Below, piece after piece: positions 29,102-51,456 of a stretch of DNA of 64,000 bases. Below the pieces are notes generated by a model. The model was not told the DNA's origin, searched no databases, and was given only the letters and a program-made list of their open reading frames with translations. Each line of letters opens with the position of its first letter. Position 1 is the stretch's first letter. Location: NCBI GenBank assembly GCA_963746745.1, contig CAVVCL010000005.1:28733-92732 (forward strand), read 5' to 3'. This stretch comes from an uncultured Chloroflexia bacterium (GTDB taxonomy: Bacteria; Chloroflexota; Anaerolineae; Anaerolineales; Villigracilaceae). The position numbers and the translations under genes were made by a program.

Positions 29102-29102
29102 G

Positions 29103-35903: not shown

Positions 35904-36389
35904 CTAGGAAGATCCGGCGGCCTGGCTGGGCACCGCCTCTTGATACTTGGTGGGGCATTTGAGCAGCAGTTCGTCAGCATGGAAGCTACCGTCTGCAAGC
36001 ACCTGGCCGGTCATAATGGCCTGGGCCTCGTCCTTTAGCAGATCGGGTTTCGGTCCCGAGTACACGACCTTCATCCGGTTGCGATTGGGGTCGATGACCG
36101 CGGCGTGCAGCACGGCCGCGAGGCCGCCTTCTGCCTCCACTTGCTGGTTATCGCCCGGCACGTGAGCGACCTCGAAAGTCAGGGTCAGCGACTGAGGATC
36201 ATATTGAATGGTATCTCCGACGACGGCGCCCGAGACCCGCAGATTTTTCCCGACAACACTCTGGCCTTGGGCCTTGAGTTCATCGATGGTCATGAAGTAC
36301 TCTGCATTGGCCTGCGTGGCGGAGACAATCAAGTAGACCACGGCTGCCAGGATCACAACCCCACCGATGATAAATTTGGAACGTCCCAT
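35904..36389 (-). CDS. ccmE: Haem chaperone CcmE, CxxxY variant
   Basis: ORF 35904..36389. N-terminal TM anchor and OB-fold region (NLRVSGAVVGDTI...). The haem-binding position reads LLKCPTKYQE, where canonical CcmE has LAKHDENY. Confidence 0.85.
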   Translation of the reverse strand: MGRSKFIIGGVVILAAVVYLIVSATQANAEYFMTIDELKAQGQSVVGKNLRVSGAVVGDTIQYDPQSLTLTFEVAHVPGDNQQVEAEGGLAAVLHAAVIDPNRNRMKVVYSGPKPDLLKDEAQAIMTGQVLADGSFHADELLLKCPTKYQEAVPSQAAGSS

Positions 36390-36539: not shown

Positions 36540-37229
36540 CTATTCCAGCGATATCAGCCCCGTACGGAGGGCGAATTTTACCAGTTCGGTGCGCGAGTGC
36601 ATGTTGAGCCGGCTCATGATGCGTTCCCGGTGGCGGGCAATCGTCTTGGGGCTCAAGCCGAGCTGGCTTCCGATCTCCACGTTGCTCTCCCCGCGCGCCA
36701 CTAGTTCGAGCACCTGGCGCTCCCGCGGACTGAGTACCTCCAGTCCTTCGGGCTGCGCAGGCCGGGCCTGCGGCAGTGCCTCGCGCGCAGTGGAAGCCTC
36801 TGCCAGGCGTTGGTAGTCCTCGATCAGCCAGCGGGCGAGAGCGGGCTGAAGGTAGACGTGGCCTTCGGCAACGGCATGGATGGCCGCGACCAGTTCGTCT
36901 GCGGCCGCCTGCTTGGTCAGGTAGCCCGAGGCGCCCGCCGCAAGCATCTGCATGAAGTACTGCTTGTCATCGTGTATGGTCAGCGCCAGCACCTGTGCTT
37001 CGGGGCAGGCCTTCTTCAGTTGACGCGTGGCCTCCAGTCCGTCGACTCCCGGCATGCCGATATCCATAAGAACGATGGCTGGTCTGGTCTCGACAGCCCG
37101 TTCGACAGCTTCGATCCCATTGCGAGCTTCGGCGACCACAAGGAACTCGCCCTGAGACTCAAGAAAGGACCTCAGACCCGTGCGGACGATGTCGTGGTCG
37201 TCCACCAGCAGTAACCGGATCGGTTCCAT
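36540..37229 (-). CDS. NarL/LuxR-family response regulator (REC plus HTH), no adjacent kinase
   Basis: ORF 36540..37229. LLVDDHDIVR, phospho-acceptor region VLMDIGMPG, and the LuxR HTH LSPRERQVLELVARGESNVEIGSQLGLSPKTIARHRERI. Confidence 0.9.
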   Translation of the reverse strand: MEPIRLLLVDDHDIVRTGLRSFLESQGEFLVVAEARNGIEAVERAVETRPAIVLMDIGMPGVDGLEATRQLKKACPEAQVLALTIHDDKQYFMQMLAAGASGYLTKQAAADELVAAIHAVAEGHVYLQPALARWLIEDYQRLAEASTAREALPQARPAQPEGLEVLSPRERQVLELVARGESNVEIGSQLGLSPKTIARHRERIMSRLNMHSRTELVKFALRTGLISLE

Positions 37230-37577
37230 CTATGAGTAGCCCCTGAGGTAAGTACTTGGAAGATCCATCAAGTCTGGCCTCTGACGTCCGCGAAGGCATC
37301 CCGACTACCCTGGGCCTTGGGGGCGGCGCTGGGAGCCAAGCTTGGGCGAGCGCGGGACAAGATCGATTCGCCGTCTGCCAGCGAACTTGATCGCTGGCGT
37401 CGGCTGTTCACCTGCAAAAACAGGTCGCCTTCCAAGAAATCACCGGTGTCAATCGCAAGATCGAGGCGCCCAGCACGAAAACGCCGCAAGCGGCGGGCAT
37501 TTTCGACGGGATGGTGTCTCTTGGGTATTCTATCCCAAGGAGTTGCCCAGGCAACATGACAAGTATCACTATGCGGA

Positions 37578-37670
37578 GTGACAAGTGTCTAAGGGTGGAT
37601 TGCGCGGGCCACGCTTCGTGGCAAAATGGTGTAACTGGAGCCCCGTAACGCGCAATTCGTGACAAATGTC
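37578..37670. promoter_or_regulatory. Two copies of GTGACAA(G/A)TGTC (GACA-N2-TGTC palindromes), 81 nt apart, upstream of the decahaem cytochrome gene
   Basis: GTGACAAGTGTC at 37578-37589 and GTGACAAATGTC at 37659-37670, in the 605-nt spacer between the response regulator and ATG 37835. Confidence 0.35.
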
Positions 37671-37834
37671 ATGTGGTATTCACCCCATTCTCAGTCTTGT
37701 TTCATGTTACACTCACGTCCGGAATTTTGGAAAAATGCCGCCTTGGCGGCGAGGATTTGGCGAGACTGCCTTAGAAATACCTAATGTGGTGCGACATCAT
37801 GATCACCTCTACTCCCTGAAAGGAGAATGCACCC

Positions 37835-40054
37835 ATGTCGTTGAGGAAAATGCTTGTTCTTATTGGCGCATTGCTGCTAGGCGCCGTGATATTGGCGGCC
37901 TGCGGGGGAGGGCAAAGCACGTCAGCTCCCGCTGCGCCGGCGACGACGGCCGCGCCAGCCGCGCCCACATTGAACGTTCCGTTCAAGGACGAATTCCTGG
38001 CGTCCGGGCATGCCAACGCGACAGACGTACCCTTCACGCACTGGGATACGGCCAATCCCGCGGAGGTGCCGCCTGCCTGTGCGAGATGCCATACTTCGGC
38101 CGGCTACCAGGAGTTCGTGGCAACGGGCAAAGTCGCGGCCGCGATCAAGGCGCCTGCCGGCGCGTTCAATTGCGATACGTGCCACAACCCGGCCGCCATG
38201 GCGTTGACCTCGGTCACCTTCCCCTCGGGCAAGGTCGTTGAGACCTCCGAGGAAGGCGAAGCGCGCTGCATGACCTGCCATCAGGGTCGCGAGTCCAAGG
38301 TCAGCGTCGACAAGCAGATCAGCGACTTCAACGTTACAGACGTCGATGCCGTCGTGGCTCCGATGAAGGATGCAAGCGGCAATAACGTCGTCTTTGGTTT
38401 CCGCAACGTCCATTACTTCGCGGCAGGCGCCACGCTTTACGGTTCGCAGGCCGAAATGGGCTACGAGTACGATGGCAAGACATATGATCCGAAGTTCCGC
38501 CATGTGCCCGAGTTCGACACCTGCATTGCGTGCCATGACCAGCACGGCACCACGGTGCGCGTGGACAAGTGCGCCGAGTGCCACCAGGGCGTAAAGACCG
38601 TTGATGACCTGAAGAACAATCGCGAGAACGGCTCGTTGGTCGATTACAACGGCAACGGCGACACCAAAGAGGGCATCTACTACGAACTGAAGGGCCTGCA
38701 GGACACACTGCTTGGCTCCATCCAGATGTATGCCAAGGAAGTGGCGGGCACCGGTCTCGTCTACGATGCAACCACGTATCCGTACTGGTTCGCGGATGCC
38801 GATGGCGACGGCAATGCAGATCAGAAGGATGGCAGCCCGGTAGCTTACACGACCTGGACCGCACGCATGCTGAAGGCGGCTTACAACTACGGCGTGGTGG
38901 CTGGGGATCCCGGCGCGTTCGCGCACAATGCCAAGTACGACATCGAATTGATGTATGACTCGATCTCTGACCTCAACACCAAGCTTTCGACGCCCGTCGA
39001 CATGTCGAAGATGGCGCGCGATGATGCGGGTCACTTTGCCGGCGATACCGAGCCGTTCCGACATTGGGACAGCACGGGTGAGGTTCCGGCGGCATGCGCG
39101 AAGTGCCACAGCGCGACCGGCCTGCCGGAATTCATCCATAACGCGGGCACCGAAGTTGTGACCAAGTCCGGCGTACAGATCACCGGTGTGGTTGGTCAGC
39201 CGCCGGCGAATGGCTTCATGTGCTCGACCTGCCACGACGAGGCCAACTGGCCGAACCGCTACGCGGTGACGAGTGTGGCGTTCCCGTCGGGCGTGTCCTT
39301 GACCTTCAGCACCGAGAAGGATGCGGACGGCAATCTTGTGCCGGTCGACTCCAACCTGTGCATCGAATGCCACCAGGGCCGCGAATCCACTCTAACCGTC
39401 AACAACTACCTGGCTGGCAAGCCGGACGACACGATCGACGCGAAGATCAGCTTCAAGAACGTCCATTACTTCGCCGCTGGCGCGACACTCTTCGGCGATG
39501 CCGCCCAGGTGGCATATCAATATGAAGGGCAAACATACGCCGGGCAGAACACGGTGCACCCGCTCAATAAGTGCACCGACTGCCATGATGTTCACCAGCT
39601 GACGGTCAAGGTCGATGCCTGCAAGGGCTGCCACACCAATGTAACGGGCGTCGCGGACCTGGACAAGATCCGGGCCACGACCGACACCACGGACTGGAAT
39701 GGCAACGGCGACGTGACGGAGGGCATCTACTCCGAGATCGACGGCTTCCGACAGGCGCTATTCACCGCCATCCAGGCGTACGCCGAAAAGAACGGGACGC
39801 CCATCGTCTACGATGCGGCAACCTACCCATATTTCTTTGTGGACGCGGACAAGGACGGCAAACCCGATACCGGCGCCAATGGCCCGGTGGGCTACAACGC
39901 CTGGACCCCACGTCTGATGAAGGCGGCCTATAACTACCAGTATTCGATCAAGGACCCAGGCGCCTTTGCTCACAACCCACAGTACGTGATGCAGTTCCTG
40001 TACGACTCGACGAAGGATCTGGGAGGCGACGTCTCGAAGTTCACGAGACCATAG
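37835..40054 (+). CDS. Decahaem c-type cytochrome lipoprotein (internal 5+5 haem duplication)
   Basis: ORF 37835..40054. SD GGAGAA precedes the start. Lipobox VILAAC. Ten CxxCH motifs: CARCH, CDTCH, CMTCH, CIACH, CAECH, CAKCH, CSTCH, CIECH, CTDCH, CKGCH. Confidence 0.9.
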   Translation: MSLRKMLVLIGALLLGAVILAACGGGQSTSAPAAPATTAAPAAPTLNVPFKDEFLASGHANATDVPFTHWDTANPAEVPPACARCHTSAGYQEFVATGKVAAAIKAPAGAFNCDTCHNPAAMALTSVTFPSGKVVETSEEGEARCMTCHQGRESKVSVDKQISDFNVTDVDAVVAPMKDASGNNVVFGFRNVHYFAAGATLYGSQAEMGYEYDGKTYDPKFRHVPEFDTCIACHDQHGTTVRVDKCAECHQGVKTVDDLKNNRENGSLVDYNGNGDTKEGIYYELKGLQDTLLGSIQMYAKEVAGTGLVYDATTYPYWFADADGDGNADQKDGSPVAYTTWTARMLKAAYNYGVVAGDPGAFAHNAKYDIELMYDSISDLNTKLSTPVDMSKMARDDAGHFAGDTEPFRHWDSTGEVPAACAKCHSATGLPEFIHNAGTEVVTKSGVQITGVVGQPPANGFMCSTCHDEANWPNRYAVTSVAFPSGVSLTFSTEKDADGNLVPVDSNLCIECHQGRESTLTVNNYLAGKPDDTIDAKISFKNVHYFAAGATLFGDAAQVAYQYEGQTYAGQNTVHPLNKCTDCHDVHQLTVKVDACKGCHTNVTGVADLDKIRATTDTTDWNGNGDVTEGIYSEIDGFRQALFTAIQAYAEKNGTPIVYDAATYPYFFVDADKDGKPDTGANGPVGYNAWTPRLMKAAYNYQYSIKDPGAFAHNPQYVMQFLYDSTKDLGGDVSKFTRP

Positions 40055-40234
40055 TCACCGGGCTCTTGAAGATAAATGATGATGGCGGGCGCAATCGCGC
40101 CCGCCATCGCGTTGCCGAGAGAACCCGTCTTGAAATCGGACAACTCCGTATGTTTTCCTATATAATTGGCGGACCGGTCTTACGCGTGTAGAAGCACCGG
40201 TCGCCAACCAGGTCGCAAGAGACAGGAGCGCGCG

Positions 40235-41398
40235 ATGACTTTGTCGAAGGCCATACGATCTCGGCTCGGGCTGTTGGCCTTGGGCATGGGTCTCGTAGTG
40301 CTTTTGGCAATCGCACTTGCGATGCCAGCCGCGGCGGCCAGACCGGCCGCTTCCCCGGGGCAGGACAAACCCTCGAATGATTTCTGCCTGGGTTGTCACA
40401 GCCAGCAAGGGCTGAGCAAGACGCTGGGCAACAGCGAAGTACTCTCCCTGACAATCGCCCCGGAGGCTTTCAAGCATAGCGCTCACAACGATGCGAACAT
40501 CCAGTGCGTGGATTGCCACACGGACATCACGAGCTTCCCCCATCCGGCGTTCCAGGCGGAATCGCGTCGAGCAGTCACGCTTCGACTGTACCAGTCGTGC
40601 AAGAACTGCCACGCTGAACAGTACAGCCTGACGCTGGACAGCGTACACCAGCAAGCGCTGGCAGCCGGGGACTTCAATGCAGCCGTCTGCACGGACTGCC
40701 ATAATCCACATGTTCAGCAGCCGCTCACGGACCCGAAAACCGGTGCTCTGCTGCCTGATGCACGGCTCCAAATACCGGAGACCTGTGCTCGTTGCCACAG
40801 CGCCATCTACGACGTGTACAAAGGAAGCGTTCACGGCGCTGCCTTGACCAATGCAGGCAACCTGGATGTGCCGACATGCATTGACTGCCATGGGGTGCAC
40901 AATATCCAGAGTCCGACCACGGCGCGCTTCCGCAACGATGTGCCGCAGCTGTGCGCCAAGTGCCATACGAATGCGACGCTCATGGCGCGGTACGGCATCT
41001 CGACGAACGTCCTCAATACGTATGTGGCCGACTTCCACGGGACGACGGTCACACTGTTTGAGCAGGTGTCGCCTGATACCCCGACCAACAAGCCCGTATG
41101 CACCGACTGCCACGGCGTGCATGATATTTCGAACGTCGACAATCCAACTACCGGCATCGCCATCAAGCAGAATCTTCTGGTCAAGTGTCAGCGCTGCCAC
41201 CCGGGTGCGACCACGGCGAATTTCACCGATGCGTGGATGAGCCACTATGTGGCCAGCCCACAACACTTCCCGCTGGTCTACTACGTTGGGCTGTTCTACA
41301 AGATCTTCGTTCCGGCCGTGATCGGCGGGATGCTGATATTCGTCGTCAGTGATTTTGTCAGACGACGAATCGACAGCCGGAAAGGAGTGCAGCGCTAA
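40235..41398 (+). CDS. Nonahaem c-type cytochrome with signal peptide and C-terminal TM anchor
   Basis: ORF 40166..41398; start set at ATG 40235 (MTLSKAIRSRLGLLALGMGLVVLLAIALA). Nine CxxCH motifs: CLGCH, CVDCH, CKNCH, CTDCH, CARCH, CIDCH, CAKCH, CTDCH, CQRCH. C-terminal helix FVPAVIGGMLIFVVSDF. Confidence 0.9.
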   Translation: MTLSKAIRSRLGLLALGMGLVVLLAIALAMPAAAARPAASPGQDKPSNDFCLGCHSQQGLSKTLGNSEVLSLTIAPEAFKHSAHNDANIQCVDCHTDITSFPHPAFQAESRRAVTLRLYQSCKNCHAEQYSLTLDSVHQQALAAGDFNAAVCTDCHNPHVQQPLTDPKTGALLPDARLQIPETCARCHSAIYDVYKGSVHGAALTNAGNLDVPTCIDCHGVHNIQSPTTARFRNDVPQLCAKCHTNATLMARYGISTNVLNTYVADFHGTTVTLFEQVSPDTPTNKPVCTDCHGVHDISNVDNPTTGIAIKQNLLVKCQRCHPGATTANFTDAWMSHYVASPQHFPLVYYVGLFYKIFVPAVIGGMLIFVVSDFVRRRIDSRKGVQR

Positions 41399-42612
41399 TG
41401 GCAAGGAAGACCGCCGCCCCGGCCCCGGTTCGTCGATACGTGCGCTTTTCAGTGGTGGACCGCGTCGAGCACCTGCTGGTGCTGCTGTCCTTCACAACGC
41501 TGGCCATCACCGGCTTGGTGCAGAAGTTTGCGTTGAATGCAGTTTCAGTATTTGTCATTACAGTGTGGGGAGGGGTGGAGGCGGTGCGCGCCACCCATCA
41601 CGTCGCCGCCACAGTGCTGATGCTGGTGGTGATTGTCCACTTGGTTGAGGTTGGCTACAAGGCGTACGTCTTGCGGACGCCGTTTGCCATGCTCCCGGGT
41701 CTTCAAGATGTGAAAGACGCGTGGATGGCCTTCCGTTACAACATCGGCCTTGGCAAGTCGCGGCCGCAGATGGGGCGTTACAGTTTCGAGGAGAAGGCCG
41801 AGTACTGGGCGCTGGTGTGGGGCATCCTCATTATGGCGTTTACCGGGTTCATGATGTGGAATCCACTCGCCACGGTGAAGCTCTTTCCGGGAGACTTCAT
41901 TCCGGCGGCAAAGACGGCGCACGGGGCAGAAGCCATTCTTGCCGTGCTGGCCATCATCGTGTGGCACCTGTACGGCGTCCAGCTGAAACGCTTCAACAAG
42001 TCCATCTGGACGGGTCAATTGACCGAAGAGGAGATGCTGCACGAGCATCCGCTGGAGCTGGCCGATATTAAGGCGGGGCTGGCTCAAGCCGCCGCCCCGG
42101 CAAAGGTGCTTAAGAGGCGGCGGCTGATTTACTACCCTGTCGCCGGCATCCTTGCTGCGGCAATGCTTTTCGGAGTGTATGGATTCATCAACGGTGAGCA
42201 GACGGCCATTACCACGGTGCCGCCCCAAGTTGCCACGGTGCCGATCTACGTTCCGCAAACACCAACGCCTCTACCGCCTACGCAGACGCCTGCGCCTTCT
42301 GCAACAGCCGGGCCCACGGCCGAGACGACGGCCGCTCCGGCCGGAGTCGTGACGTGGGCTGAGGTGGGACCCGTGTTTGCCGCCAAGTGCAGCATGTGCC
42401 ACGGTGCGACGCTGGCGACGAACGGCCTGAGCTTCGCAACGTATGCCCAGGCGCTAAAAGGTGCGCAGGACGGGGCAGTCATCTTGCCGGGCGATGCGGC
42501 GAACAGCAAGCTGATTCAAATCCAGTCACAAGGCGGGCATCCGGGCCAGTTGACGGCTGAGGAGCTGGCCCTGGTGAGCGCCTGGATCAAGGCGGGCGCG
42601 GTCGAGCACTGA
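41398..42612 (+). CDS. FdnI/HydC-like b-type cytochrome (membrane) fused to a C-terminal monohaem PSCyt1-like cytochrome c domain
   Basis: ORF 41398..42612. Its ATG overlaps the preceding TAA (TAATG), with SD AAAGGAG 10 nt upstream. RFSVVDRVEHLLVLLSFTTLAITGLVQKF and later His-containing helices fit the cytochrome b561/FdnI family. A Pro/Thr linker is followed by FAAKCSMCHG...WIKAGA. Confidence 0.8.
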   Translation: MARKTAAPAPVRRYVRFSVVDRVEHLLVLLSFTTLAITGLVQKFALNAVSVFVITVWGGVEAVRATHHVAATVLMLVVIVHLVEVGYKAYVLRTPFAMLPGLQDVKDAWMAFRYNIGLGKSRPQMGRYSFEEKAEYWALVWGILIMAFTGFMMWNPLATVKLFPGDFIPAAKTAHGAEAILAVLAIIVWHLYGVQLKRFNKSIWTGQLTEEEMLHEHPLELADIKAGLAQAAAPAKVLKRRRLIYYPVAGILAAAMLFGVYGFINGEQTAITTVPPQVATVPIYVPQTPTPLPPTQTPAPSATAGPTAETTAAPAGVVTWAEVGPVFAAKCSMCHGATLATNGLSFATYAQALKGAQDGAVILPGDAANSKLIQIQSQGGHPGQLTAEELALVSAWIKAGAVEH

Positions 42613-42624
42613 GTTTCTGCGGGG

Positions 42625-44358: not shown

Positions 44359-44416
44359 GTCTGCGGACCATCGTGTGGGGCCGGGGTAGGCCCCTGCCCC
44401 TACCCACGGAGCAAAT

Positions 44417-44446
44417 AGGCCGATCCTTATGGATCGGCCTGTTTTT
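44417..44446. terminator. Rho-independent terminator between convergent operons
   Basis: AGGCCGATCC-TTAT-GGATCGGCCT followed by GTTTTTG. Confidence 0.8.
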
Positions 44447-44471
44447 GTTAGGTTGATGCGGGGGTGGGTGG

Positions 44472-45740
44472 TTAGGCTGGGACCGTCTCCCGTATGTCGG
44501 CTTTGACGGTCTCGGCCTCCTCCACGACGAATCGATGGTTTACCACGTTCAGGTAGCGAACTCCGAGAGAGAAACCCAGAAGTCCATAGGCGATCACACC
44601 CATGCCCGTGACGATCTCTATCAAGGACGGGGTATAGGAGGCATACGCCACGGCTTGGCCGGGAAGGTACGGCATGACGACGAGCAGGCCGGAGAGATTG
44701 GTGTCCCATCGGTACGCTACCACGCCGATGACAACCAGTGCCAATGCCAGCATCCTCCAGAACCGGTTGCGCCGCGTGTATGGGGTTAGCAGCAAGACCA
44801 TCGGGACGAGAGAGCCCAGCAGCATCTCCAGTATCCAGAAGTTGAAAGAGAGCGGCCCGCCAGTAAACAAGGCGAAACCCTCCGTACGACCCGGGTCGTA
44901 CGTGTAGTGCTGAACAAAGGCATCCCAGAAGCGGAAGTAGAGATACCCGACGAGCGCCCAAGCCACAAAGCGGGAAAGGCGTTCCAGGAGGAAGTCGTTC
45001 ACTTTCGCCCTGGGTGTCAACCTGGCGGCAAGCATCGAAGCAAACAACGTAAGGGATATGCCTCCGATGATGGCGGAGAACATGAACAGGACGGTCATTT
45101 CGGGCTTGTACCAGATGGGCCGGGCCTTCAGGACGCCGTAGACGCCGCCTAGGGAGGACTGGTGCAGCATCGAAAGGCCCAGCCCGACGATGGCCAGGTA
45201 GGGCGCGTAATGATGCACGCTATTCATCTTCGCCGCCAAGGCAGGAAAGCGTTTCTTCAGCCAACTCAAGCTTGCAAAGATCGGCATGGACTCGAACACC
45301 AGTACCGTCAGGTACAGCATGACGCACATGGTGACTTCCCAGAGCAGCGAGTGGTCGTTCCAGTACACGAGAGCATGCCAGAATCGATCCGGACGGCCGA
45401 TGTCAAGAAGGAGCGAGAGCATGGCCATCGTGTAGCCGATCAGCCCGACGAACGTGGCCGTGCGGGCGACCGGCTGATAGCGCTTGAGCCCGATGAGGTA
45501 GACAGCCGCGCACAAGGTGAAGGCACCAGCGCTCAAGGCGATCGAAGAAAGGTCGATTGTGATCCACAAACCCCAGGGCACCAAGTCCGAGAGGTTGGTG
45601 ATCCACAGCCCCTTTGAGAAAACCAGGAAGCCGCCTGCCAGCGCCGCGAGGAGCACGAGGCCGAGACCAGCGAGCCAGAGCGTCCAGCGCGAAATTGTCG
45701 GCAGCGGCAACCGGATGCGTTTGAGATTACCGATCATCAT
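44472..45740 (-). CDS. NrfD/PsrC/HmcC-family polytopic quinone-interacting membrane subunit
   Basis: ORF 44472..45740. VPWGLWITIDLSSIALSAG, DIGRPDRFWHALVYWN and LLWEVTMCV are typical NrfD-family helices. The start overlaps the upstream stop (ATGA). Confidence 0.85.
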   Translation of the reverse strand: MMIGNLKRIRLPLPTISRWTLWLAGLGLVLLAALAGGFLVFSKGLWITNLSDLVPWGLWITIDLSSIALSAGAFTLCAAVYLIGLKRYQPVARTATFVGLIGYTMAMLSLLLDIGRPDRFWHALVYWNDHSLLWEVTMCVMLYLTVLVFESMPIFASLSWLKKRFPALAAKMNSVHHYAPYLAIVGLGLSMLHQSSLGGVYGVLKARPIWYKPEMTVLFMFSAIIGGISLTLFASMLAARLTPRAKVNDFLLERLSRFVAWALVGYLYFRFWDAFVQHYTYDPGRTEGFALFTGGPLSFNFWILEMLLGSLVPMVLLLTPYTRRNRFWRMLALALVVIGVVAYRWDTNLSGLLVVMPYLPGQAVAYASYTPSLIEIVTGMGVIAYGLLGFSLGVRYLNVVNHRFVVEEAETVKADIRETVPA

Positions 45741-46510
45741 GCCTCCATCTTCTGCGGATCGGCGGCGATGTAGTAGACACGCGGACCCGTCCCGAGATCC
45801 TCGCGCAGACGGTAGGTTACGTTGTCCTTGAGAAGCTTGCTGACCTGCGAGTCGGGGTTGTTCACATCACCGAAGACACGGGCGCCAGTGGGGCACACCA
45901 CGACGCACGCCGGTGTCGCGTCGGCGTCAACTCCGGGTTCGAGCCCGAGTGCCAGGCCACGATCTATCCGCTGGTAGCAGAATGAGCATTTTTCGACGAC
46001 GCCACGCGGTCGGCGCGCAACTTCCGGCTGCCCCCACTTGGGAACGGCCGGATTGGGGCCGTCGAAGGCTTGCCAGTTGAAGGATCTGGCCTGGTAGGGG
46101 CATGCCGCTTCGCAGTATCGACAGCCAATGCAACGGTCGTAGTCCATCATCACAATCCCGTCATCCCGGTAGTAGGATGCCTTGACCGGACAGACATCGA
46201 CGCAGGGGGCGTCCTCACAGTTCATGCAAGGCCGCGGGAGGAAGACGCTCTTTCCCGCAACCTCGCCGGCCGGTGTGACGCGATTCCACTCGATTTCAGG
46301 GTTGATGTCATTGTGCGCCTGGCACGCGAGGGTGCAGTAGCCACAGCCGAGGCACTTGGACTGGTCGATGACCATCGCCCACTGGCGCGGCCCTGTGTTT
46401 GAATTTTCAGAGGCCTCGGCGCCATGAAGCACCCGCGTGGCCGTGGCAGCAGTGGCACCCACGGCGGCGAGTTTGAGAAAGTCGCGTCGGCCAAGTCTCT
46501 TAGTCATCAT
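45737..46510 (-). CDS. Tat-exported 4Fe-4S ferredoxin-type subunit (NrfC/DmsB/HmcB-like)
   Basis: ORF 45737..46510. Twin-arginine signal GRRDFLKLAAVGATAA. Cys clusters CLGCGYCTLAC, CMNCEDAPCVDVCP, CIGCRYCEAACP, CSFC...CVVVCP. Confidence 0.88.
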   Translation of the reverse strand: MMTKRLGRRDFLKLAAVGATAATATRVLHGAEASENSNTGPRQWAMVIDQSKCLGCGYCTLACQAHNDINPEIEWNRVTPAGEVAGKSVFLPRPCMNCEDAPCVDVCPVKASYYRDDGIVMMDYDRCIGCRYCEAACPYQARSFNWQAFDGPNPAVPKWGQPEVARRPRGVVEKCSFCYQRIDRGLALGLEPGVDADATPACVVVCPTGARVFGDVNNPDSQVSKLLKDNVTYRLREDLGTGPRVYYIAADPQKMEA

Positions 46511-47477
46511 CGCCTCCGCGCTCGCGTTTTGCGAGTTTGCTGTACCACTTTTCGAGCCAGGGTGCCATCACCATACCCGCTGCCAGTCCGATCAGGGCCG
46601 CCAGGCCGGCGTACCCCAACGGGCTTACGGGGCTGGGATGGGGCGCAAGGCCAGCCTGTTGGATCTGCGCCGGCTGGGAAACAGTCATTGCGGCGGCCGG
46701 ATTGGTACCCACTGCGGACGCCGCGCTGTGCATCTGGTCGGAATGGCACGCATTGCAGCTGTCCAGATTGGCTTTGAAAGAATGGTCCGGAATCGCATGC
46801 GCATCGGGCGGGGTCGTCTCGCTGTGATTCACGTGGCAGTTGATGCAAGTGACGCCCTGCTGCTGATGAATCGTGTACGGGAAGTTCATGCTCACGTCTT
46901 TGTGGCAGGTGACGCACAACTGAGAGGCGTCGGTGTATTGGGCGCTTCCATCCCGGGGTGTTACCACCTTGAGGGAGGCACTGTGCGGGTCGTGGCAGGT
47001 GGTGCAGTTCATGCCGCGCTGGTAGTGGGTGCTTCCCTGCCAATCCTGCCAATCAAATCGTGTGTCGCTGTGACAACGGGCACACAGATCGGGGGACCGA
47101 TCGACCGGCATCGGCTCTTTGGGATGGCCGGCGACCATGGGGCCGTGGCAGGCTTCACACGCGACGCCGTCCTCCTGCCAGGTGCCGGTCGCTGGATCGT
47201 AGTTTGTGGCATGGCAGACAAGGCAGGCGCCCGGCTGTCCCTGGCTGTTCCAATCCTTAAGGAATGCCGGATCAGTGGCAGCCTGGCCATGCGCGCCGTC
47301 TTTCCATGCTGTCGCAAACTCCGTGTGGCAGGCGACACACGGCGGTGATTGCGGCGCCGGTTGGGTGGGGGCCACCGGGGTTGGATCTTGTGCCCGCGCG
47401 ACGAGAAGGGTGGCGCCCGCCGCCGCCACCGCAAACAAAGCTGCAATCAGGAGTTGTTTGAAACGTCGAAGCATCAT
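46500..47477 (-). CDS. Octahaem c-type cytochrome with C-terminal TM anchor
   Basis: ORF 46500..47477. Signal peptide. Eight CxxCH motifs: CVACH, CLVCH, CEACH, CARCH, CTTCH, CVTCH, CINCH, CNACH. C-terminal helix GYAGLAALIGLAAGMVMAPW. Overlaps the next gene by 8-11 nt. Confidence 0.9.
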   Translation of the reverse strand: MMLRRFKQLLIAALFAVAAAGATLLVARAQDPTPVAPTQPAPQSPPCVACHTEFATAWKDGAHGQAATDPAFLKDWNSQGQPGACLVCHATNYDPATGTWQEDGVACEACHGPMVAGHPKEPMPVDRSPDLCARCHSDTRFDWQDWQGSTHYQRGMNCTTCHDPHSASLKVVTPRDGSAQYTDASQLCVTCHKDVSMNFPYTIHQQQGVTCINCHVNHSETTPPDAHAIPDHSFKANLDSCNACHSDQMHSAASAVGTNPAAAMTVSQPAQIQQAGLAPHPSPVSPLGYAGLAALIGLAAGMVMAPWLEKWYSKLAKRERGGDDD

Positions 47478-47498
47478 TGCATCTCCTCTGGGGCCCGA

Positions 47499-47825
47499 CT
47501 AGGCTTGGGCCGGCAAAGGCGCCCGAAGCAGCACCGGGCAGCCTAGACATTTTTCGTTCAAGTAGCCGCTGGGGAGGCGAAGTGCCTGCCAGCAAGGCAG
47601 CGGCGACTTGTAGCCCAAACATGCTTTCCGCTGTGCCGGGGCACAGCCCTGGGTATTCCAGCACTGGGGCTTTTCGACTTTGAGCGGAATGCTATCCGCC
47701 TCCGTCTGCCAGTGGCGGTCGAGGCTGCGCAAGCCGGTTACTACAAGCACGGTGAGCAGAATCGGAACGGCCAAGCGGAGAGCCAGGCCAACGAGAACAG
47801 CGAGAGCCGCGGTTGAACTATTCAT
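47499..47825 (-). CDS. Small membrane protein with a Cys-rich domain containing two Cys-Trp motifs
   Basis: ORF 47499..47879; start set at ATG 47825 after AGGAGG. TM ALAVLVGLALRLAVPILLTVLVVTGL, then KPQCWNTQGCAPAQRKACLGYKSPLPCWQALRLPSGYLNEKCLGCPV. Confidence 0.55.
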   Translation of the reverse strand: MNSSTAALAVLVGLALRLAVPILLTVLVVTGLRSLDRHWQTEADSIPLKVEKPQCWNTQGCAPAQRKACLGYKSPLPCWQALRLPSGYLNEKCLGCPVLLRAPLPAQA

Positions 47826-47835
47826 GATGTGCCTC

Positions 47836-47955
47836 CTACCGGTAGTATCCGATCCGCTGGCGCCTTTGAATCCATTCACCGATCAGCAGCAGTACGCCGA
47901 CGGGCAAGACGAGCCGCACTAAAACCAAAGCGAACATGATCTCGAAGGTGTTCAT
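47836..47955 (-). CDS. Very small membrane protein (39 aa), first gene of the octahaem/NrfCD operon
   Basis: Tail of ORF 47836..48348. ATG 47955 follows GGAGAA. MNTFEIMFALVLVRLVLPVGVLLLIGEWIQRRQRIGYYR. It ends 8 nt before the next gene's SD. Confidence 0.4.
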   Translation of the reverse strand: MNTFEIMFALVLVRLVLPVGVLLLIGEWIQRRQRIGYYR

Positions 47956-48379
47956 TGCATTCTCCAGTTCCTGCCCCGCATCCAGTCTTGTAGGGGAGCG
48001 CTTGGGTCGCGGTAGGAACGCTTGAAGTGTACGCTCCGGCACCTGCGCCGTAAATTCGGCAGCGCCCCCAACTTTCAGGCGGGCCGGTGCTGTGCGCGCC
48101 CCCTGAGCGCGTACTGCTCTTGCCCCATGGCGCCGTTGCGCGGTGGGGTATTCGCCCCATAAATCAGAACCTCCCGCCGACTTGCTTGGCGGGAGGCATA
48201 GGCTTGGTGAGTGAATGTGAAGGGGGTTCTGGCGGCCCGCCCTGATTCTGAAAGGAGATTCTCGGGCACGGAAAATATGCCGAAAGGCTGCAAAGCGCGG
48301 CTGAAGGGCGCCTACCTGCCTGAGGGGGAGCCAGCCGAAAGTCCTCACGCAGCACAGGCTGGCGTGCCCAGCGCACTTG

Positions 48380-49024
48380 TCAGGGTTTGATGATCCCCTT
48401 GCGGATGGCGTATCTGACCAATTCCGACCTGGAGTGTAGATTCAATTTTCGCATGATGTTTTCGCGGTGACGGTCCACCGTTTTTGGGCTGATCACCAGC
48501 GACACGGCGATCTCCTCGGTACTGGTGCCTTCGGCGAGATACGTCAACACCTCGCGCTCCCGCTCTGTCAGGCCATCCAAAGTCGCCTTTTCCTCGGCGG
48601 GGTGATCCTGATTCAAGAAGTCAGTCACCAATAGCTTGGCCAGGGACGGGTACAAGTAGACCTCGCCCGAGAAGGCCGCTCTAATGGCCCTCAGCAACTC
48701 CTCAGGCGCAGCGCGCTTCGGTACGTATCCGGAAGCTCCGGCCTCCAACATCTTGAAGAAATATTCTTCATCCTCGTGGATGGTCAGCGCCACAACCGAG
48801 ATGCTTGGAAAGCGCTTCTTGATTGCCCGTGTGGCTTCTATTCCTGAGAGATCGGGTAACCCGATATCCATCAGGATTACATCGGGGCGCACGGTCCCGG
48901 CCGCCTCTATTGCCTCCGCAGCGGTCCCGGCTTCCCCGACGATATCAACATCGTCTTCTGAGCCCAGGAGCATCTTCAAGCCAGAGCGAACGACGGCGTG
49001 GTCGTCAACCAGCAGCAGGCGCAT
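48380..49024 (-). CDS. NarL/LuxR-family response regulator
   Basis: ORF 48380..49204; start set at ATG 49024 (MRLLLVDDHAVVRSG), overlapping the kinase 3' end. Phospho-acceptor ILMDIGLPD. HTH LTEREREVLTYLAEGTSTEEIAVSLVISPKTVDRHRENI. Confidence 0.9.
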   Translation of the reverse strand: MRLLLVDDHAVVRSGLKMLLGSEDDVDIVGEAGTAAEAIEAAGTVRPDVILMDIGLPDLSGIEATRAIKKRFPSISVVALTIHEDEEYFFKMLEAGASGYVPKRAAPEELLRAIRAAFSGEVYLYPSLAKLLVTDFLNQDHPAEEKATLDGLTEREREVLTYLAEGTSTEEIAVSLVISPKTVDRHRENIMRKLNLHSRSELVRYAIRKGIIKP

Positions 49025-50444
49025 TGTCACGGGGATCCTCGACTTCATCACGATAGGGCACAAAGGCTTCAATGACGGTGCCGTCACCGGGTGTTGATCG
49101 GACTGTGACTGCACCACCGAGAAGCGCGGCACGCTCCTGCATGCCGGCGAGCCCCAGCGGCGGCCGCACGGACGACTGGGTCCGGCGCAGCTTTTCCAAG
49201 TCAAAGCCGCATCCGTCGTCGCGTATCACCAGGTGCACGCCTTTCTCGGCAAAGTCAAGCCCGATGCTGGCCTTGTGAGCGTCGGCATGCCTGATTACAT
49301 TATTGAGGGCTTCCTGGATGATGCGAAATGTTGCTATCTTCGCCGCGTCGCCAATGGGCTGCTCTTTCCCCTCGATATCCACAACGACTTTCAGTTGAGA
49401 CCGTTCTTCGATCCTGGACGCATACCAGCGCAGGGCTGCAGGCAACCCCAGGTCATCCAGGTGCGAGGGGCGCAAGTCGGCCATGAGGCGCTGAAGCTCT
49501 TTGAGGGAGTCAGCGGTCAAGGCCTGCAGTTCATGCAAGGTCGATGCAGCTTGTTCCGGGTCCCGTATTAATCGGCCCTCCAAGCCCCGCAGGCCCAGGC
49601 CAATCGCGGTGAGCGCCTGCCCGGTTTCGTCGTGCAAGTCGCGCGCCATGCGCTGACGTTCAGATTCCTGGGCAGCGACAACGCGGCGAAAGAGTTCGCC
49701 GCGCAGGGCCTCACGTTGCTGCGATTCTCTCAGCCGTTCACTCTGCAAGTCTGAGATCCTCTGTTCAGTCTCGACCTGGAACGCCCGCAGGAAGCGGATG
49801 ACGTAAACGGAGGCCGCGGCGGCCACCACGGCACGCAGGAACTGTACTGGAAAGCCAAATAGGCGCAGGAATAGGCCTTCATTGATGAAGTTAGACGGCG
49901 GCAGCGAGCTGGCGCGGGTGAAGCCCTGTCCCACGATGCCGTACCAGGCGAATGCAACGGCCGCCCACAAGGCATCCTGCCCGAAGCGCACGAGGCCCGC
50001 CTGCCGGAAGGCACGCTGCTGGGCAATCAAGCCGACGGAGGCGAGTATGCTGGCCGGAATAGCGAGAGAGTAGCGCGTCCACACATCCGTGGCGCCGTAG
50101 AGCGACGCCGGCGGAATGCTCGACTTGAGACTCATGAGGCCAAATACCCAAAGCGCCTCCAGTCCTAGCGGAATCATCAAGCTGACGCGTTGCGCGATTT
50201 CGTCCTTTGCCAGGAGGAATCCGCCGAACGCCGCCAGGGAAAGGAATGAGAACGCCAGGGTGGAAAGTCTGAGAATCTGCAGCCAGGATGCAACAGGGTG
50301 CCCGCTCCCCAGGCTGACAAACGTGTACATTTCGATCCACTCGTGCGCGGCATGCACGAGCCCAAAGCCTGCCAGCGGCCGCAAGGCCTTGCGGACGCGC
50401 TGGTCCGAGGACCGTCCCCCCTCGACCGCGACCAAGAGGCCCAT
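49005..50444 (-). CDS. Sensor histidine kinase (HisKA_3/NarX-LiaS class) with a polytopic N-terminal sensor
   Basis: ORF 49005..50444. H-box RMARDLHDETGQALTAI. ATPase boxes EALNNVIRHA, DDGCGFD, GLAGMQERA. Five to six N-terminal TM helices. The frame stays open a further 60 nt upstream with no ATG/GTG/TTG (see findings). Confidence 0.88.
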   Translation of the reverse strand: MGLLVAVEGGRSSDQRVRKALRPLAGFGLVHAAHEWIEMYTFVSLGSGHPVASWLQILRLSTLAFSFLSLAAFGGFLLAKDEIAQRVSLMIPLGLEALWVFGLMSLKSSIPPASLYGATDVWTRYSLAIPASILASVGLIAQQRAFRQAGLVRFGQDALWAAVAFAWYGIVGQGFTRASSLPPSNFINEGLFLRLFGFPVQFLRAVVAAAASVYVIRFLRAFQVETEQRISDLQSERLRESQQREALRGELFRRVVAAQESERQRMARDLHDETGQALTAIGLGLRGLEGRLIRDPEQAASTLHELQALTADSLKELQRLMADLRPSHLDDLGLPAALRWYASRIEERSQLKVVVDIEGKEQPIGDAAKIATFRIIQEALNNVIRHADAHKASIGLDFAEKGVHLVIRDDGCGFDLEKLRRTQSSVRPPLGLAGMQERAALLGGAVTVRSTPGDGTVIEAFVPYRDEVEDPRDNAPAAG

Positions 50445-50553: not shown

Positions 50554-51456
50554 CTACTCGGGCTGCCTGAGCCTGGTCCCGCAGACGCGGCAGTATCGGT
50601 CATCCGGATGCGCGCGTGTGCCGCATTGATGGCAGTAGACCTCGTTACCGGGGCGCTCCCGCCGCTCCGACGCCCTGCGATGACGCCTTTCGCTGGCGAG
50701 AACGCGCCCGCGGCTTGATTGCCAGAAGTAGACAGATCCGCCGACGATCAGGGCCAGCCCGAGCATACCCAAGACATACGGAAGATAGTTGCTGAGCATG
50801 ACCCGACCCGGCGTGGCAGCTCCGAGCGGCTGCGATGGTTGGAGATCCTGCCTGGAGGCCGTAAGGCTATCGGTGGTCTTCGAATAGCTGAGCTGGAGCG
50901 GCACTTGCTGCTGCGCAGCCACCGCACCGAAATCGTTTGTCAAGTAGGGCGTCCCATCCGCACTCTGACTGGATTGCATTGGGGGATCAGAGCTTACATT
51001 GGTGGCATCGAGAGGCATGCGCGCACTGATCGCAAGGTCAGTCACGGGGTAGTCGCCGGGCCATACGTAGGAGAACTGACGCACGTTCCCCTCTCCGGAC
51101 AGCGGCTGATAATATTCAATGTGGTAGGTGGCAGCGGTCTGTATCTGGAGGGAGATCGTCTGCCAGCTGTCACCCAGGCTGGGACCCTGATAGTCGGTGT
51201 TAAGCAGGCTCCCGTCAACTGACTGCGAGGCGACTGCAACCAGGTTCGCTTCCTTTGGAAAGCGCAGAGAGATGCTGATTGGCAGCTTGGCGTCGGCCGG
51301 CAGCCTGAAATCGTAGATCACGAGCATGCTCGGCTGATCGTACTCGGGCCACAGCTGGATCTGAAGACTCGAGAGCGTAATTGGGGTCTGCGCGTGCGCG
51401 CGAATTGAAAAGAAGATCGTCCCCGTGAGTATGGCCAGTGCCAACCACTTCCGCAT
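50554..51456 (-). CDS. Secreted or bitopic protein with a C-terminal cytoplasmic zinc ribbon, function unknown
   Basis: ORF 50554..51468; start ATG 51456 after GGTGGAGG. Signal peptide MRKWLALAILTGTIFFSIRAHA. TM YVLGMLGLALIVGGSVYFW. C-terminus YCHQCGTRAHPDDRYCRVCGTRL. Confidence 0.65.
   Translation of the reverse strand: MRKWLALAILTGTIFFSIRAHAQTPITLSSLQIQLWPEYDQPSMLVIYDFRLPADAKLPISISLRFPKEANLVAVASQSVDGSLLNTDYQGPSLGDSWQTISLQIQTAATYHIEYYQPLSGEGNVRQFSYVWPGDYPVTDLAISARMPLDATNVSSDPPMQSSQSADGTPYLTNDFGAVAAQQQVPLQLSYSKTTDSLTASRQDLQPSQPLGAATPGRVMLSNYLPYVLGMLGLALIVGGSVYFWQSSRGRVLASERRHRRASERRERPGNEVYCHQCGTRAHPDDRYCRVCGTRLRQPE

Follow-up and report, generated by a model that had tools for sequence, protein, structure and literature searches.

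Why would a bacterium encode several kinds of membrane quinone-interacting module beside four multihaem c-type cytochromes, and no enzyme for them to serve? The question is posed by a 64,000-nucleotide (nt) stretch of contig CAVVCL010000005.1, from an uncultured Chloroflexia bacterium (Anaerolineales); we refer to the whole stretch as the window and give coordinates as positions in it. Two convergent operons, 37835-44358 on the plus strand and 44472-50444 on the minus strand, make up a gene cluster whose products we examined by translating open reading frames (ORFs) and by Pfam, NCBIfam, and PDB sequence searches (Table 1). The cluster is real and is conserved across Anaerolineae (Chloroflexota); it is characterised by its domains, by haem sites with conserved axial ligands, by topology signals, by a modular neighbourhood with no linked enzyme, and by an operator-like motif. 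Ordinary-looking in its chemistry, it is yet widespread and unannotated. Its best reading, which we hold with moderate confidence on the strength of sequence features, is outward extracellular electron transfer by a cluster that includes a decahaem lipoprotein (DECA).

Translation of the ORFs reproduced exactly the coordinates and CxxCH counts of the initial annotation (10, 9, 7 plus two variant motifs, and 8), and the domain searches confirmed its three distinct quinone-interacting modules, its flanking regulators (two response regulators of the NarL/LuxR type and one HisKA_3 kinase), and the nearby System I cytochrome c maturation (ccm) genes. The catalytic subunit that it had reported missing is indeed missing: Pfam and NCBIfam scans found no gene for a catalytic enzyme among the window proteins in or adjoining the cluster, and none for a molybdopterin enzyme, NrfA, Dsr, HAO, or Nos; no cluster protein has a CxxCK motif. 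Its word "island" is a misnomer, since base composition is flat over the region (guanine-plus-cytosine content, 0.59-0.62) and skew is flat too. The region is therefore native DNA and not a compositional island, and horizontal acquisition is ruled out by these flat profiles together with flanking synteny that is kept in relatives.

The decahaem lipoprotein and three quinone-interacting modules

DECA, the most novel part of the cluster, is built from two tandem pentahaem modules (residues ~40-395 and 396-739, each ~345 residues) that are 41% identical to each other (E 9e-91), and it has a Pro/Ala/Thr-rich tether of ~25 amino acids (aa). Among 83 distinct homologues, down to 46% identity, exactly 10 His residues outside the haem motifs never vary, five in each module; 73 have a lipobox and 75 keep the aligned lipobox Cys, and the family linker has a median length of 33 aa, 76% of it P, A, T, S, G, E, or Q in the homologue alignment. 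DECA contains neither a variant haem motif nor CxxCK. Because there is one invariant distal-His candidate per haem, every haem can be bis-His, and this potential together with the lack of CxxCK favours electron transfer over catalysis; the sequence thus argues for DECA being a wire rather than an enzyme. Conserved distal-His candidates likewise number 9 for the 9 haems of the nonahaem cytochrome (57 homologues) and at least 8 for the 8 of the octahaem cytochrome, as against 10 for 10 in DECA, over alignments of 15 to 83 homologues.

The initial annotation's description of DECA as "surface-type" claimed too much, the protein being a tethered lipoprotein with weak similarity to OcwA or MtrC. Its relationship to MtrC/OmcA cytochromes appears to be remote at best: the model for MtrC/MtrF domain II/IV (PF22113) matches 16 of 32 DECA-family members at E <= 0.01, with P0121 reaching 54 bits, DECA has no match to TIGR03507 (OmcA/MtrC), and phmmer of DECA against PDB sequences returned nothing relevant.

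A search of 1.84 billion representative proteins found the pentahaem module in 1231 clusters, with one, two, three, or more copies per protein; one such lipoprotein, of 1284 aa, carries 15 haems and three Big_2 immunoglobulin (Ig)-like domains. Surface wires are expected rather than enzymes because module number varies and Ig-like domains are fused to the module. Another protein, P0264 (1439 aa), combines an archaeal-type ATPase domain, TPR, a transmembrane (TM) region, and a PnrA/Bmp-like binding domain with one C-terminal pentahaem module, an architecture which suggests that the module may also serve in redox sensing or signalling.

Three modules could supply such a wire from the quinone pool. 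The NapC/NirT-type protein that ends the plus-strand operon (PF03264, 45.8 bits against a cutoff of 24.1; NrfH chain 2j7a_C in the PDB, E 1.5e-8; NCBIfam NrfH model, 59 bits against a cutoff of 134) carries a TM helix at residues ~38-56, ~11 residues past which CGTTCH occupies residues 70-75. A conserved Met stands two residues after the His of this CX3CH; we take the resulting CX3CH-x-M to be equivalent to the CxxCHxM signature of NrfH haem 1. All nine haem sites are conserved in 40-41 of 41 homologues, and because the variant motifs CX3CH (40/41) and CX4CH are kept to the same extent, they are genuine haem sites and the protein has nine haems.

Its motif spacing and its TM/CX3CH layout make the protein collinear with Geobacter ImcH; this likeness to GSU3259, and that to GSU0274 below, was judged from published motif and TM positions. 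Counted from the first motif, the window protein has motifs at +24, +72, +179, +292, +312, and +359, and GSU3259 has them at +24, +73, +179, +296, +316, and +354 (supplementary table, PMC6295460). In the definition of Zhong and Shi, ImcH homologues have TM helices at the N-terminus with an atypical CX3CH next to these, and six CxxCH motifs; CxxCH number ranges from 5 to 9, and non-Geobacter members are 31-49% identical to GSU3259 (PMC6295460). Geobacter ImcH has three TM helices, while the homologues from Intrasporangium and from Anaerolinea thermophila, the sole member listed from Chloroflexi, have one (PMC6295460). By sequence the window protein is tied to the family indirectly, through this A. 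thermophila homologue. The window protein shares with Geobacter ImcH its NapC/NirT-type anchor, the CX3CH directly after a TM helix, and six CxxCH motifs at the GSU3259 spacing; it is unlike it in having one TM helix rather than three, an extra CX4CH haem, and a PSCyt1 domain.

The second module is a pair of genes, for a nonahaem cytochrome and a cytochrome b (CYTB561c). The true start of the former is probably ATG 40235, giving 387 aa, because relatives are 387-390 aa long; its best PDB sequence match is OcwA. CYTB561c scores 50.1 bits against PF01292 (Ni_hydr_CYTB; cutoff 30.1), 29.5 bits against PF07635, and 47.9 bits, which is below cutoff, against TIGR01583 (FdnI), and its His residues 25, 67, 81, 175, and 190 are conserved. 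It has ~5 TM helices by eye; a hydropathy scan clearly resolves four regions, the third helix not being among them. The stop codon of the nonahaem gene overlaps the start codon of the cytochrome b gene, and in 40 adjacent Chloroflexota pairs the nonahaem gene always comes first. A fusion of the two genes (a Rosetta stone) was sought among these pairs, and none was found.

Concatenated, the two proteins present nine CxxCH motifs and then ~6 TM helices (1 + 5, by eye), as GSU0274 (CbcL) presents nine haem motifs and then six TM helices (supplementary table, PMC6295460). TM offsets, again by eye, are ~+63, +102, +177, +217, and +285 for the pair and +66, +114, +192, +226, and +304 for GSU0274. 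Haem-motif intervals are 40, 31, 30, 32, 31, 25, 49, and 29 against 23, 25, 23, 24, 29, 28, 43, and 28, so that similarity is confined to the last two intervals and the distance to the TM helix. The single polypeptide that defines CbcL/MtoC/MtrH, a nine-haem c-type domain fused to a dihaem b, is replaced here by two genes, and Zhong and Shi report no homologue of CbcL from Chloroflexi (PMC6295460). We therefore describe the pair as a split CbcL-like unit that would be CbcL-like in its working; it is not a strict member because it is never fused (40/40 pairs) and its first six haem spacings differ. The pair and Geobacter CbcL have in common nine c haems with about six TM helices after them, a HydC/FdnI-type dihaem b among these; the pair is further distinguished by an extra PSCyt1 domain. 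The Geobacter analogies first drawn for this locus are in this way borne out quantitatively, for ImcH by motif spacing and CX3CH and for CbcL by a layout of nine haems and six TM helices, here divided between two genes.

The third module is encoded by the translationally coupled genes for an NrfD-family membrane subunit, a Tat-exported iron-sulfur (FeS) protein, and a compact octahaem cytochrome (OCTA). The NrfD subunit scores 215.7 bits against QrcD (cutoff 570), 157.8 against HmcC (cutoff 550), and 145.7 against HybB, with lesser scores against DsrP (61; cutoff 350) and NrfD (44.5; cutoff 348). A hydropathy scan, too coarse for a helix count, gives ~7 clear hydrophobic regions, and a PDB sequence search with this subunit returned nothing useful. 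The FeS protein passes the DsrO cutoff (216.6 bits; cutoff 200) and scores 195.9 against QrcC (cutoff 400), 149 against NrfC (cutoff 378), and 74.4 against HmcB (cutoff 420); its PDB matches are ArrB (6cz7_B, E 3e-41), ActB of Alternative Complex III (ACIII; 6f0k_B, E 8e-40), and PsrB (2vpw_B, E 1e-34), and it aligns only to the C-terminal part of ActB-type chains (from ~residue 680-790). OCTA reaches 65 bits, below cutoff, against TIGR03508; its best PDB match is OcwA (E 1.4e-6), and it also matches 6r2q_A (333 aa; E 1.4e-5). The PDB match table labels this chain "cystathionine beta-synthase"; we take 6R2Q to be the MtrCAB complex and chain 6r2q_A to be MtrA. We read OCTA as an MtrA/DmsE-like haem wire.

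Together, the three proteins appear to form a minimal ACIII/Qrc-like core of multihaem, FeS, and membrane subunits. They share with ACIII, Qrc, and NrfBCD a multihaem c subunit, a Tat-exported NrfC/PsrB-type FeS protein, an NrfD-family membrane subunit, and coupled genes; they are unlike them in numbering three subunits only, in their 8-haem, C-terminally anchored MtrA-like cytochrome, and in scoring below every curated equivalog cutoff except that for DsrO. The trio is not ACIII, Qrc, Hmc, Dsr, or Nrf because it is without a molybdopterin-like domain, a second NrfD-like subunit, NrfA, and DsrMK. The cluster has no Molybdopterin Pfam match that would mark an ActB1/QrcB domain and no QrcB-like gene, nor does it encode ActD, ActE, ActF, a second NrfD-like subunit, DsrM, DsrK, NrfA, HmcD, HmcE, or HmcF; the HmcA model gives at most 24 bits in the window (cutoff 400). 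ACIII was accordingly rejected on its single NrfD gene, an octahaem cytochrome in place of pentahaem ActA, and the lack of a fused B1 domain and of monohaem ActE; Qrc, on QrcD and QrcC scores far below cutoffs and no QrcB; Hmc, on HmcA, HmcB, and HmcC scores far below cutoffs and the lack of a 16-haem HmcA and of HmcD-F. DsrMKJOP fails in spite of the DsrO score, with DsrP below its cutoff, 8 haems rather than those of trihaem DsrJ, and no adjacent DsrMK, and Nrf (NrfABCD/NrfHA) fails for want of CxxCK, with the NrfC, NrfD, and NrfH models all below their cutoffs.

Table 1. Features of the cluster and its surroundings, in window coordinates (RR, response regulator; HK, sensor kinase)
Feature	Position	Strand	CxxCH motifs	Characteristics
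DECA, decahaem lipoprotein	37835-40054	+	10	739 aa; signal peptide; lipobox LAAC (Cys23)
Nonahaem c-type cytochrome	40235-41398 (probable start; ORF 40166-41398 opens with TTG at 40166)	+	9	Signal peptide; C-terminal TM anchor
CYTB561c	41398-42612	+	1	FdnI/HydC-type dihaem cytochrome b with C-terminal extracytoplasmic monohaem PSCyt1 domain
ImcH-like cytochrome	42625-44358	+	7, plus CGTTCH and CSNSACH	One TM helix; CX3CH-x-M; six CxxCH; CX4CH; C-terminal PSCyt1 monohaem domain
NrfD-family integral membrane subunit	44472-45740	-		PF03916, 117 bits; QrcD/HmcC/HybB-like subgroup
Tat-exported NrfC/PsrB/ActB2-type 4Fe-4S protein	45737-46510	-		Fer4_11; RRDFLK Tat motif; 257 aa
OCTA, compact octahaem cytochrome	46500-47477	-	8	Signal peptide; C-terminal TM anchor; 41 aa per haem
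108-aa membrane protein	47499-47825	-		One TM helix; extracytoplasmic six-Cys domain; no Pfam match
39-aa single-TM protein gene	47836-47955	-		Own ribosome-binding site; 40-aa genes at the same position in L004 and L005
RR2, NarL/LuxR-type response regulator	48380-49048	-		PF00072 and PF00196; start ATG 49048 or 49024
HK2, sensor kinase	49005-50444	-		HisKA_3/HATPase_c; multi-TM N-terminal domain of no known family
RR1, NarL/LuxR(GerE)-type response regulator	36540-37229	-		NCBIfam UvrY/NarL-type matches; divergent from DECA
Palindrome TGACAAATGTCA	37660-37671			Candidate operator, 170 bp upstream of the DECA start codon
Hairpin	40081-40108	+		Perfect 12-bp stem just 3' of DECA; no T tract on plus strand
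Promoter-like site	40137-40166			Downstream of the hairpin after DECA
Intrinsic-terminator-like hairpin	44417-44449	+		10-bp stem, loop TTAT, then GTTTTTGTT
Zinc-ribbon membrane protein	50554-51468	-		Signal peptide, extracytoplasmic domain, TM helix, cytoplasmic zinc ribbon
System I ccm cluster	27616-36389	-		ccmC, ccmB, ccmA, split c-type cytochrome, Zn-ribbon, TlpA/CcmG-like, ccmH, ccmF, ccmE (Pfam)

Neighbourhoods and a fourth cassette in relatives

Scanning a single genome for each species, we found DECA relatives in the genomes of at least 539 species. The best 80 DECA-bearing genomes are all labelled Chloroflexota, mostly Anaerolineae, bar one unclassified "bacterium" metagenome-assembled genome (MAG). 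Close relatives in metagenomes number in the thousands, the few named ones being Anaerolineales or Chloroflexi, and by their record titles many of the host metagenomes come from anoxic subsurface, digester, or sulfidic sites. The homologues are annotated just as "hypothetical" or "cytochrome c3 family." DECA-related proteins of ~1030 aa are also present in Candidatus Abyssubacteria, where the gene examined lies at a contig end and its context is uninformative.

The window proteins, along with a relative's Rieske/cytochrome b genes, were mapped onto 86 related loci (cited by L numbers), and neighbourhood statistics were drawn from the 44 species loci flanked by at least 8 kb on either side, counting modules within 10 kb of DECA. 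The NapC-type cytochrome is found there in 66% of these loci, the nonahaem and cytochrome b pair in 61%, the HK-RR2 pair in 59%, NrfD/FeS (plus octahaem) in 50%, ccm in 27%, and Rieske/cytochrome b in 18%. At least one quinone module lies near DECA in 41 of the 44 and at least two in 32, in many gene orders and orientations. A neighbourhood so shuffled and yet so persistent is strong evidence, from gene context, that DECA and the quinone modules are functionally associated.

No enzyme has a comparable place beside them. When we clustered 485 unassigned ORFs from ~80 loci to seek recurrent enzymes, no reductase recurred near DECA and no family from outside the cluster occurred in more than 9 of the ~80 loci, and on this basis a linked catalytic reductase in relatives was rejected. 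Neither of the two findings that the initial annotation had named as refuting it, a consistently linked known reductase or a standard ACIII or Qrc/Hmc locus, was borne out. The most recurrent extra families that we inspected were an ABC transporter, DinG, a kinase, an XRE/cupin regulator, and an L,D-transpeptidase-like protein. One single enzyme linkage was seen, in the distant locus L088 (1-3262, 10001-13204): 6 kb separate a three-module, 1067-aa DECA relative from a Psr/Phs-like molybdopterin oxidoreductase that has FeS and NrfD subunits, and a rhodanese and more multihaem cytochromes are encoded nearby.

In relatives whose DECA is 77-96% identical, the operon also encodes a Rieske/cytochrome b complex, its genes placed between those for cytochrome b561 and the ImcH-like protein. 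The c subunit of this complex, of 715 aa in L007, is a cytochrome b C-terminal domain fused to seven c haems. The C-terminal monohaem PSCyt1 domains of CYTB561c and the ImcH-like protein are 46% identical to each other, and each is 33% identical to the C-terminus of this Rieske-linked seven-haem cytochrome; up to four quinol oxidase types end in the same monohaem domain, and the sharing of that domain suggests a common docking partner for all of them.

The Rieske/cytochrome b block is 3.4 kb long in L007 (14770-18190), whose nucleotide identity to the window is ~90%, and the window has 143 unrelated bases (42601-42743) instead; this has the appearance of a clean cassette gain or loss between sister species. 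Since so near a relative has the block, the module set of the window is one sample of a cassette system and not a fixed unit. The initial annotation had proposed a "self-contained" conduit, a description that does not survive a fourth module in the same operon of this relative and a module set that varies between genomes.

Regulatory genes, transcription signals, and other neighbours

A further, paralogous kinase, HK1, lies between RR1 and DECA in L008, L010, L013, and L014 and is ~35% identical to HK2 over its full length; it is absent from L007 and from the window (37230-37834), where RR1 is therefore an orphan. The longer TTG ORF of RR2 is probably spurious. The palindrome upstream of DECA has no other exact match in the window and is conserved in the aligned upstream regions of relatives, and across 1.5 Mb of related loci 17 of 33 TGACNWWNGTCA sites fall <400 bp upstream of a DECA homologue, including loci at ~50% identity. 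Two other sites (L001 9834 and L058 9822) are also upstream of the decahaem gene by position, the script having assigned them to a nearer gene. No second such palindrome precedes the minus-strand operon; the only other near-match in the window is inside a coding region. The GAC-N4-GTC core of the palindrome resembles, as we take it, NarL-family boxes such as DosR, and by this analogy RR1 or RR2 is a likely binder of the candidate operator. Expression of the cluster is probably controlled by NarL-type two-component proteins through the palindrome.

The hairpin after DECA and the promoter-like site beyond it suggest that DECA may be transcribed apart from the downstream genes, which would fit loci with DECA alone (L002). 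The terminator-like hairpin at the far end of the plus-strand operon was read directly from the sequence, not being listed by a consensus scan, and closes that operon in the 113-bp convergent gap. Upstream of the octahaem gene stand the genes for the 108-aa protein (six-Cys pattern, C-x5-C-x7-C-x8-C-x14-C-x2-C) and the 39-aa protein, which travel with the HK2-RR2 pair in relatives; homologues of the 108-aa protein adjoin RR2-HK even where the NrfD/FeS/octahaem genes are lacking (L005). These small membrane proteins may be a redox or metal co-sensor.

The ccm genes are context that supplies haem attachment; their order is the same in L001-L005, and they adjoin the decahaem gene in the window's clade. 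A frame change near 31196-31203 divides the c-type cytochrome gene among them (29947-31828, minus strand) into two ORFs. In L002-L005 the cytochrome is encoded by one undivided gene (592-642 aa; 608 aa in L003), and L001 has two genes; the split in the window is either a sequencing or assembly error or a sign of a pseudogene. Membership in the system is uncertain for the zinc-ribbon protein at 50554-51468, which is within 10 kb of the decahaem gene in 32% of species loci. A smaller zinc-ribbon protein (31798-32244, minus strand) is encoded inside the ccm operon in the relatives examined, with L003 having a gene there without a recorded zinc-ribbon Pfam match.

Further out, ~2 kb upstream of the ccm cluster, a 757-aa protein (23015-25288, minus strand) has a 4Fe-4S dicluster and two CCG domains of the HdrD/TfrB/LdhH/DsrK-like kind, preceded by ~280 N-terminal residues that match no family; by these domains it could be a further membrane-associated redox module. 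Unrelated to the cluster is a Ser/Thr protein kinase fused to PD40/WD40-like beta-propeller repeats (61867-63990, minus strand).

Proposed outward electron transfer and its alternatives

The topology signals, which are Sec signal peptides, the Tat motif, an odd number of TM helices before each PSCyt1 domain, and the lipobox, place the FeS protein and every c-type haem on the outer side of the cytoplasmic membrane. In outward extracellular electron transfer, menaquinol would be oxidised by one of three entry modules, chosen by regulation, acceptor potential, or energy yield: the split CbcL-like unit, the ImcH-like NrfH-type cytochrome, or the minimal NrfD, FeS, and octahaem module. Electrons would leave through the anchored haem wires or the monohaem output domains for DECA, which, anchored in a presumably monoderm envelope by a flexible tether of ~25-50 residues, would pass them to extracellular or wall-side acceptors (Fe(III)/Mn(IV) minerals, humics, electrodes, or partner cells). 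The order of these transfers, their outward direction, and the acceptor are what we infer from the features above, as we do the binding of a regulator to the motif. NrfH-type proteins oxidise quinol at the outer face in an electroneutral reaction, FdnI-type proteins have a transmembrane dihaem b, and NrfD-type proteins are possibly ion-translocating; by analogy, the modules should differ in energy yield, in line with the reasoning put forward for ImcH and CbcL of Geobacter (PMC6295460; 10.1101/2021.04.15.440034).

Geobacter offers the closest parallel for the entry modules. Its ImcH and CbcL serve acceptors of different potential (PMC6295460; 10.1101/2021.04.15.440034). Like Geobacter with its ImcH, CbcL, and NrfCD-type Cbc, the window host has several alternative entry modules in one organism and no enzyme attached to them. 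It is unlike Geobacter in that its modules share one cluster with the protein presumed to accept their electrons, while imcH was found to have no neighbouring conduit genes of the mtrAB/mtoAB type (PMC6295460), and in that it is presumably a monoderm member of Chloroflexota without a porin-cytochrome conduit. Anaerolineales are reported to be without a Gram-negative envelope and porin-cytochrome complexes, yet rich in multihaem cytochromes (PMC7399161), and for this reason membrane-tethered DECA could itself be the terminal reductase. Within the phylum, the iron-reducing isolate Ardenticatena maritima shows both anodic and cathodic electron transfer (PMC5808234). Its surface cytochrome ARMA_0580 was considered as a counterpart of DECA and is a different protein (430 aa, 7 haems); the largest cytochrome in that genome has 7 haems.

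Two further systems resemble DECA in their terminal components. Thermincola potens OcwA (6i5b) and Carboxydothermus ferrireducens OmhA (6qvm) are likewise multihaem cytochromes anchored at the membrane or wall of a monoderm envelope. OcwA, a cell-wall terminal reductase with nine haems, some of them His-only, is the best (if weak) structural match of DECA as well as the best PDB sequence match of the nonahaem cytochrome and OCTA; DECA is unlike it in being a tandem pentahaem repeat with all haems apparently bis-His, and we know of no ImcH-like, CbcL-like, or NrfCD-type cluster described next to OcwA. MtrC/OmcA/MtrF of Shewanella, with CymA, presents the same combination of a ~700-aa lipoprotein, ten bis-His haems in two pentahaem units, and a NapC/NirT-family quinol dehydrogenase to feed it, to which the remote Pfam similarity of the DECA family to MtrC/MtrF domain II/IV may be added. 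It is set apart by beta-barrel domains I/III, of which the predicted secondary structure of DECA gives no sign, by its MtrAB partner, which has no equivalent here, and by the lack of any PDB MtrC match in Foldseek.

Several points weigh against outward transfer. Distal His residues were assigned by counting conserved residues in alignments and not on a haem-containing structure. With the AlphaFold (AF2) model of DECA, itself confident (pLDDT 84.8), the best Foldseek match, OcwA, is weak (E 0.2, probability 0.94, TM-scores 0.23/0.34, identity 13%), with OmhA and then NrfA following, both also weak; the isolated pentahaem module, modelled and searched in the same way, has no PDB match better than E 2. 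The N-terminal half of DECA reaches only 26.3 bits against PF22113 (cutoff 30). Among the 120 best matches to the DECA of a MAG labelled "Anaerolinea thermophila," all of them metagenomic, no homologue in a named cultured strain was found, and the cluster holds no identified component dedicated to spanning a wall or S-layer. The Rieske/cytochrome b genes in the operon of close relatives are more typical of ordinary high-potential respiration, and the frequent adjacency of ccm and the ubiquity of DECA could equally mark a housekeeping carrier. Finally, Qrc and the CbcL/MtoC relatives work in the quinone-reducing direction (PMC6295460).

The most probable alternative is a general respiratory hub, in which tethered DECA, with the anchored nona- and octahaem wires, would be the housekeeping carrier. 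It would take electrons from any quinol oxidase, Rieske/cytochrome b included, and deliver them not to extracellular acceptors but to terminal oxidases or to reductases of nitrite, NO, or N2O whose genes lie elsewhere; its premise is that soluble periplasmic cytochromes would be lost from a monoderm cell. We think it possible though unlikely. A Q-cycle-type input is at hand in the Rieske/cytochrome b complex and its seven-haem c subunit, which share the operon in relatives (18% of species loci) and end in the same PSCyt1 domain as the other two modules. A carrier so basic would also be expected where DECA is found, beside ccm in the window's clade, in at least 539 species, and, in L002, alone with ccm and a two-component system. 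Such a carrier is harder to reconcile with the ~80 loci in which no oxidase or reductase gene recurs within 10 kb of DECA, with 10-15 haems, a variable number of modules, and Ig-domain fusions, which would be unusual for a simple shuttle, and with the anoxic subsurface, digester, or sulfidic origin of many host metagenomes.

Improbable, and clearly more so than a hub, is that electrons flow inward, perhaps bidirectionally, from a donor outside the cell, which might be Fe(II), reduced humics, a cathode, or a syntrophic partner, to the quinone pool through the NrfD/FeS/octahaem and b561 modules. Precedents exist in Qrc for the former and in the FdnI and MtoC/MtrH types for the latter; the NrfD subunit scores best against QrcD, a menaquinone reductase, and the cathodic as well as anodic current of A. 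maritima (PMC5808234) is in keeping with this direction. The window, however, showed no marker of iron oxidation (Cyc2, Mto, or other) and no gene for carbon fixation, and sequence fixes no direction of electron flow.

Could DECA itself be an enzyme, namely a pentahaem reductase of the NrfA/OTR/OcwA kind in duplicate, which three quinol dehydrogenases would feed and whose substrate would be a soluble N- or S-oxyanion? OcwA reduces nitrite and hydroxylamine in vitro, and the weak Foldseek matches of DECA do include OcwA and then NrfA; moreover, 6 of 32 family members touch the Cytochrom_C552 Pfam model, and a homologue in one JGI record bears the name "nitrite reductase cytochrome c552 subunit." Yet CxxCK and variant motifs are both lacking from DECA, and since the 83 sequences keep one invariant non-motif His for each haem, none of the haems is obviously open; nor does the isolated module match NrfA significantly (E >2, TM-score 0.17), and module copy number runs from 1 to at least 3. 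An enzymatic DECA is thus very improbable.

Hardly tenable is the view that the minus-strand trio is a standard ACIII, Qrc, Hmc, or DsrJOP locus and the rest of the neighbourhood coincidental: the FeS subunit passes the DsrO cutoff and counts ACIII ActB among its best PDB relatives, and NrfD scores best against QrcD, but the trio has no ActB1/QrcB domain, a single NrfD-like subunit, no ActD-F, HmcD-F, or DsrMK, QrcD, QrcC, HmcC, HmcB, and DsrP scores far below curated cutoffs, and 8 haems rather than 5, 6, 16, or 3, and coincidence is contradicted by DECA and the CbcL-like and ImcH-like modules recurring in shuffled orders.

In the searchable literature we found neither an experimental study of the cluster nor any account of it, of the DECA family, of the split CbcL-like pair, of the output domain that the modules share, or of the operator; the initial annotation had suspected as much for this lineage. 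For Anaerolineae genome RBG-9, "a decaheme" and "octaheme ... operons with DMSO reductase family subunits" have been mentioned, and published speculation holds that Anaerolineae use large multihaem cytochromes for extracellular electron transfer. One study reported no c-type cytochromes of the MtrC/OmcA family in five Anaerolineae genome bins or strain UNI-1, probably because the DECA family is annotated only as hypothetical or "cytochrome c3 family."

More broadly, we propose tentatively, and with less confidence than the outward reading itself, that the DECA family and its interchangeable cassettes (ImcH-like, split CbcL-like, NrfCD-octahaem, and Rieske/cytochrome b), acting through a common output domain, are the core extracellular electron transfer machinery of Anaerolineae, a monoderm system of separate evolutionary origin from Mtr, Pcc, and OcwA. 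In anoxic sediments, soils, aquifers, and anaerobic digesters few bacteria are more abundant than Anaerolineae, whose energy metabolism is largely a matter of guesswork. The cluster defines a testable gene set for them, made up of the terminal decahaem lipoprotein, the quinone modules (as many as four) and the output domain that these share, a dedicated two-component system, and a candidate operator. Even as a housekeeping hub, the cluster would illustrate the replacement of soluble periplasmic cytochromes in a monoderm lineage. Should the function be confirmed, the potential-tiered inner-membrane entry points known from Geobacter would extend to a monoderm phylum, modular pentahaem wires would constitute a new structural family, and metagenomic surveys of iron and electrode respiration would gain marker genes. 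If the proposal of a core machinery is true, a Q-cycle bc complex would be wired directly to an extracellular terminal reductase, the complement of cassettes would set the range of acceptor potentials usable by each species, and hundreds of Anaerolineae species would be electroactive, a capacity that annotation pipelines have missed.

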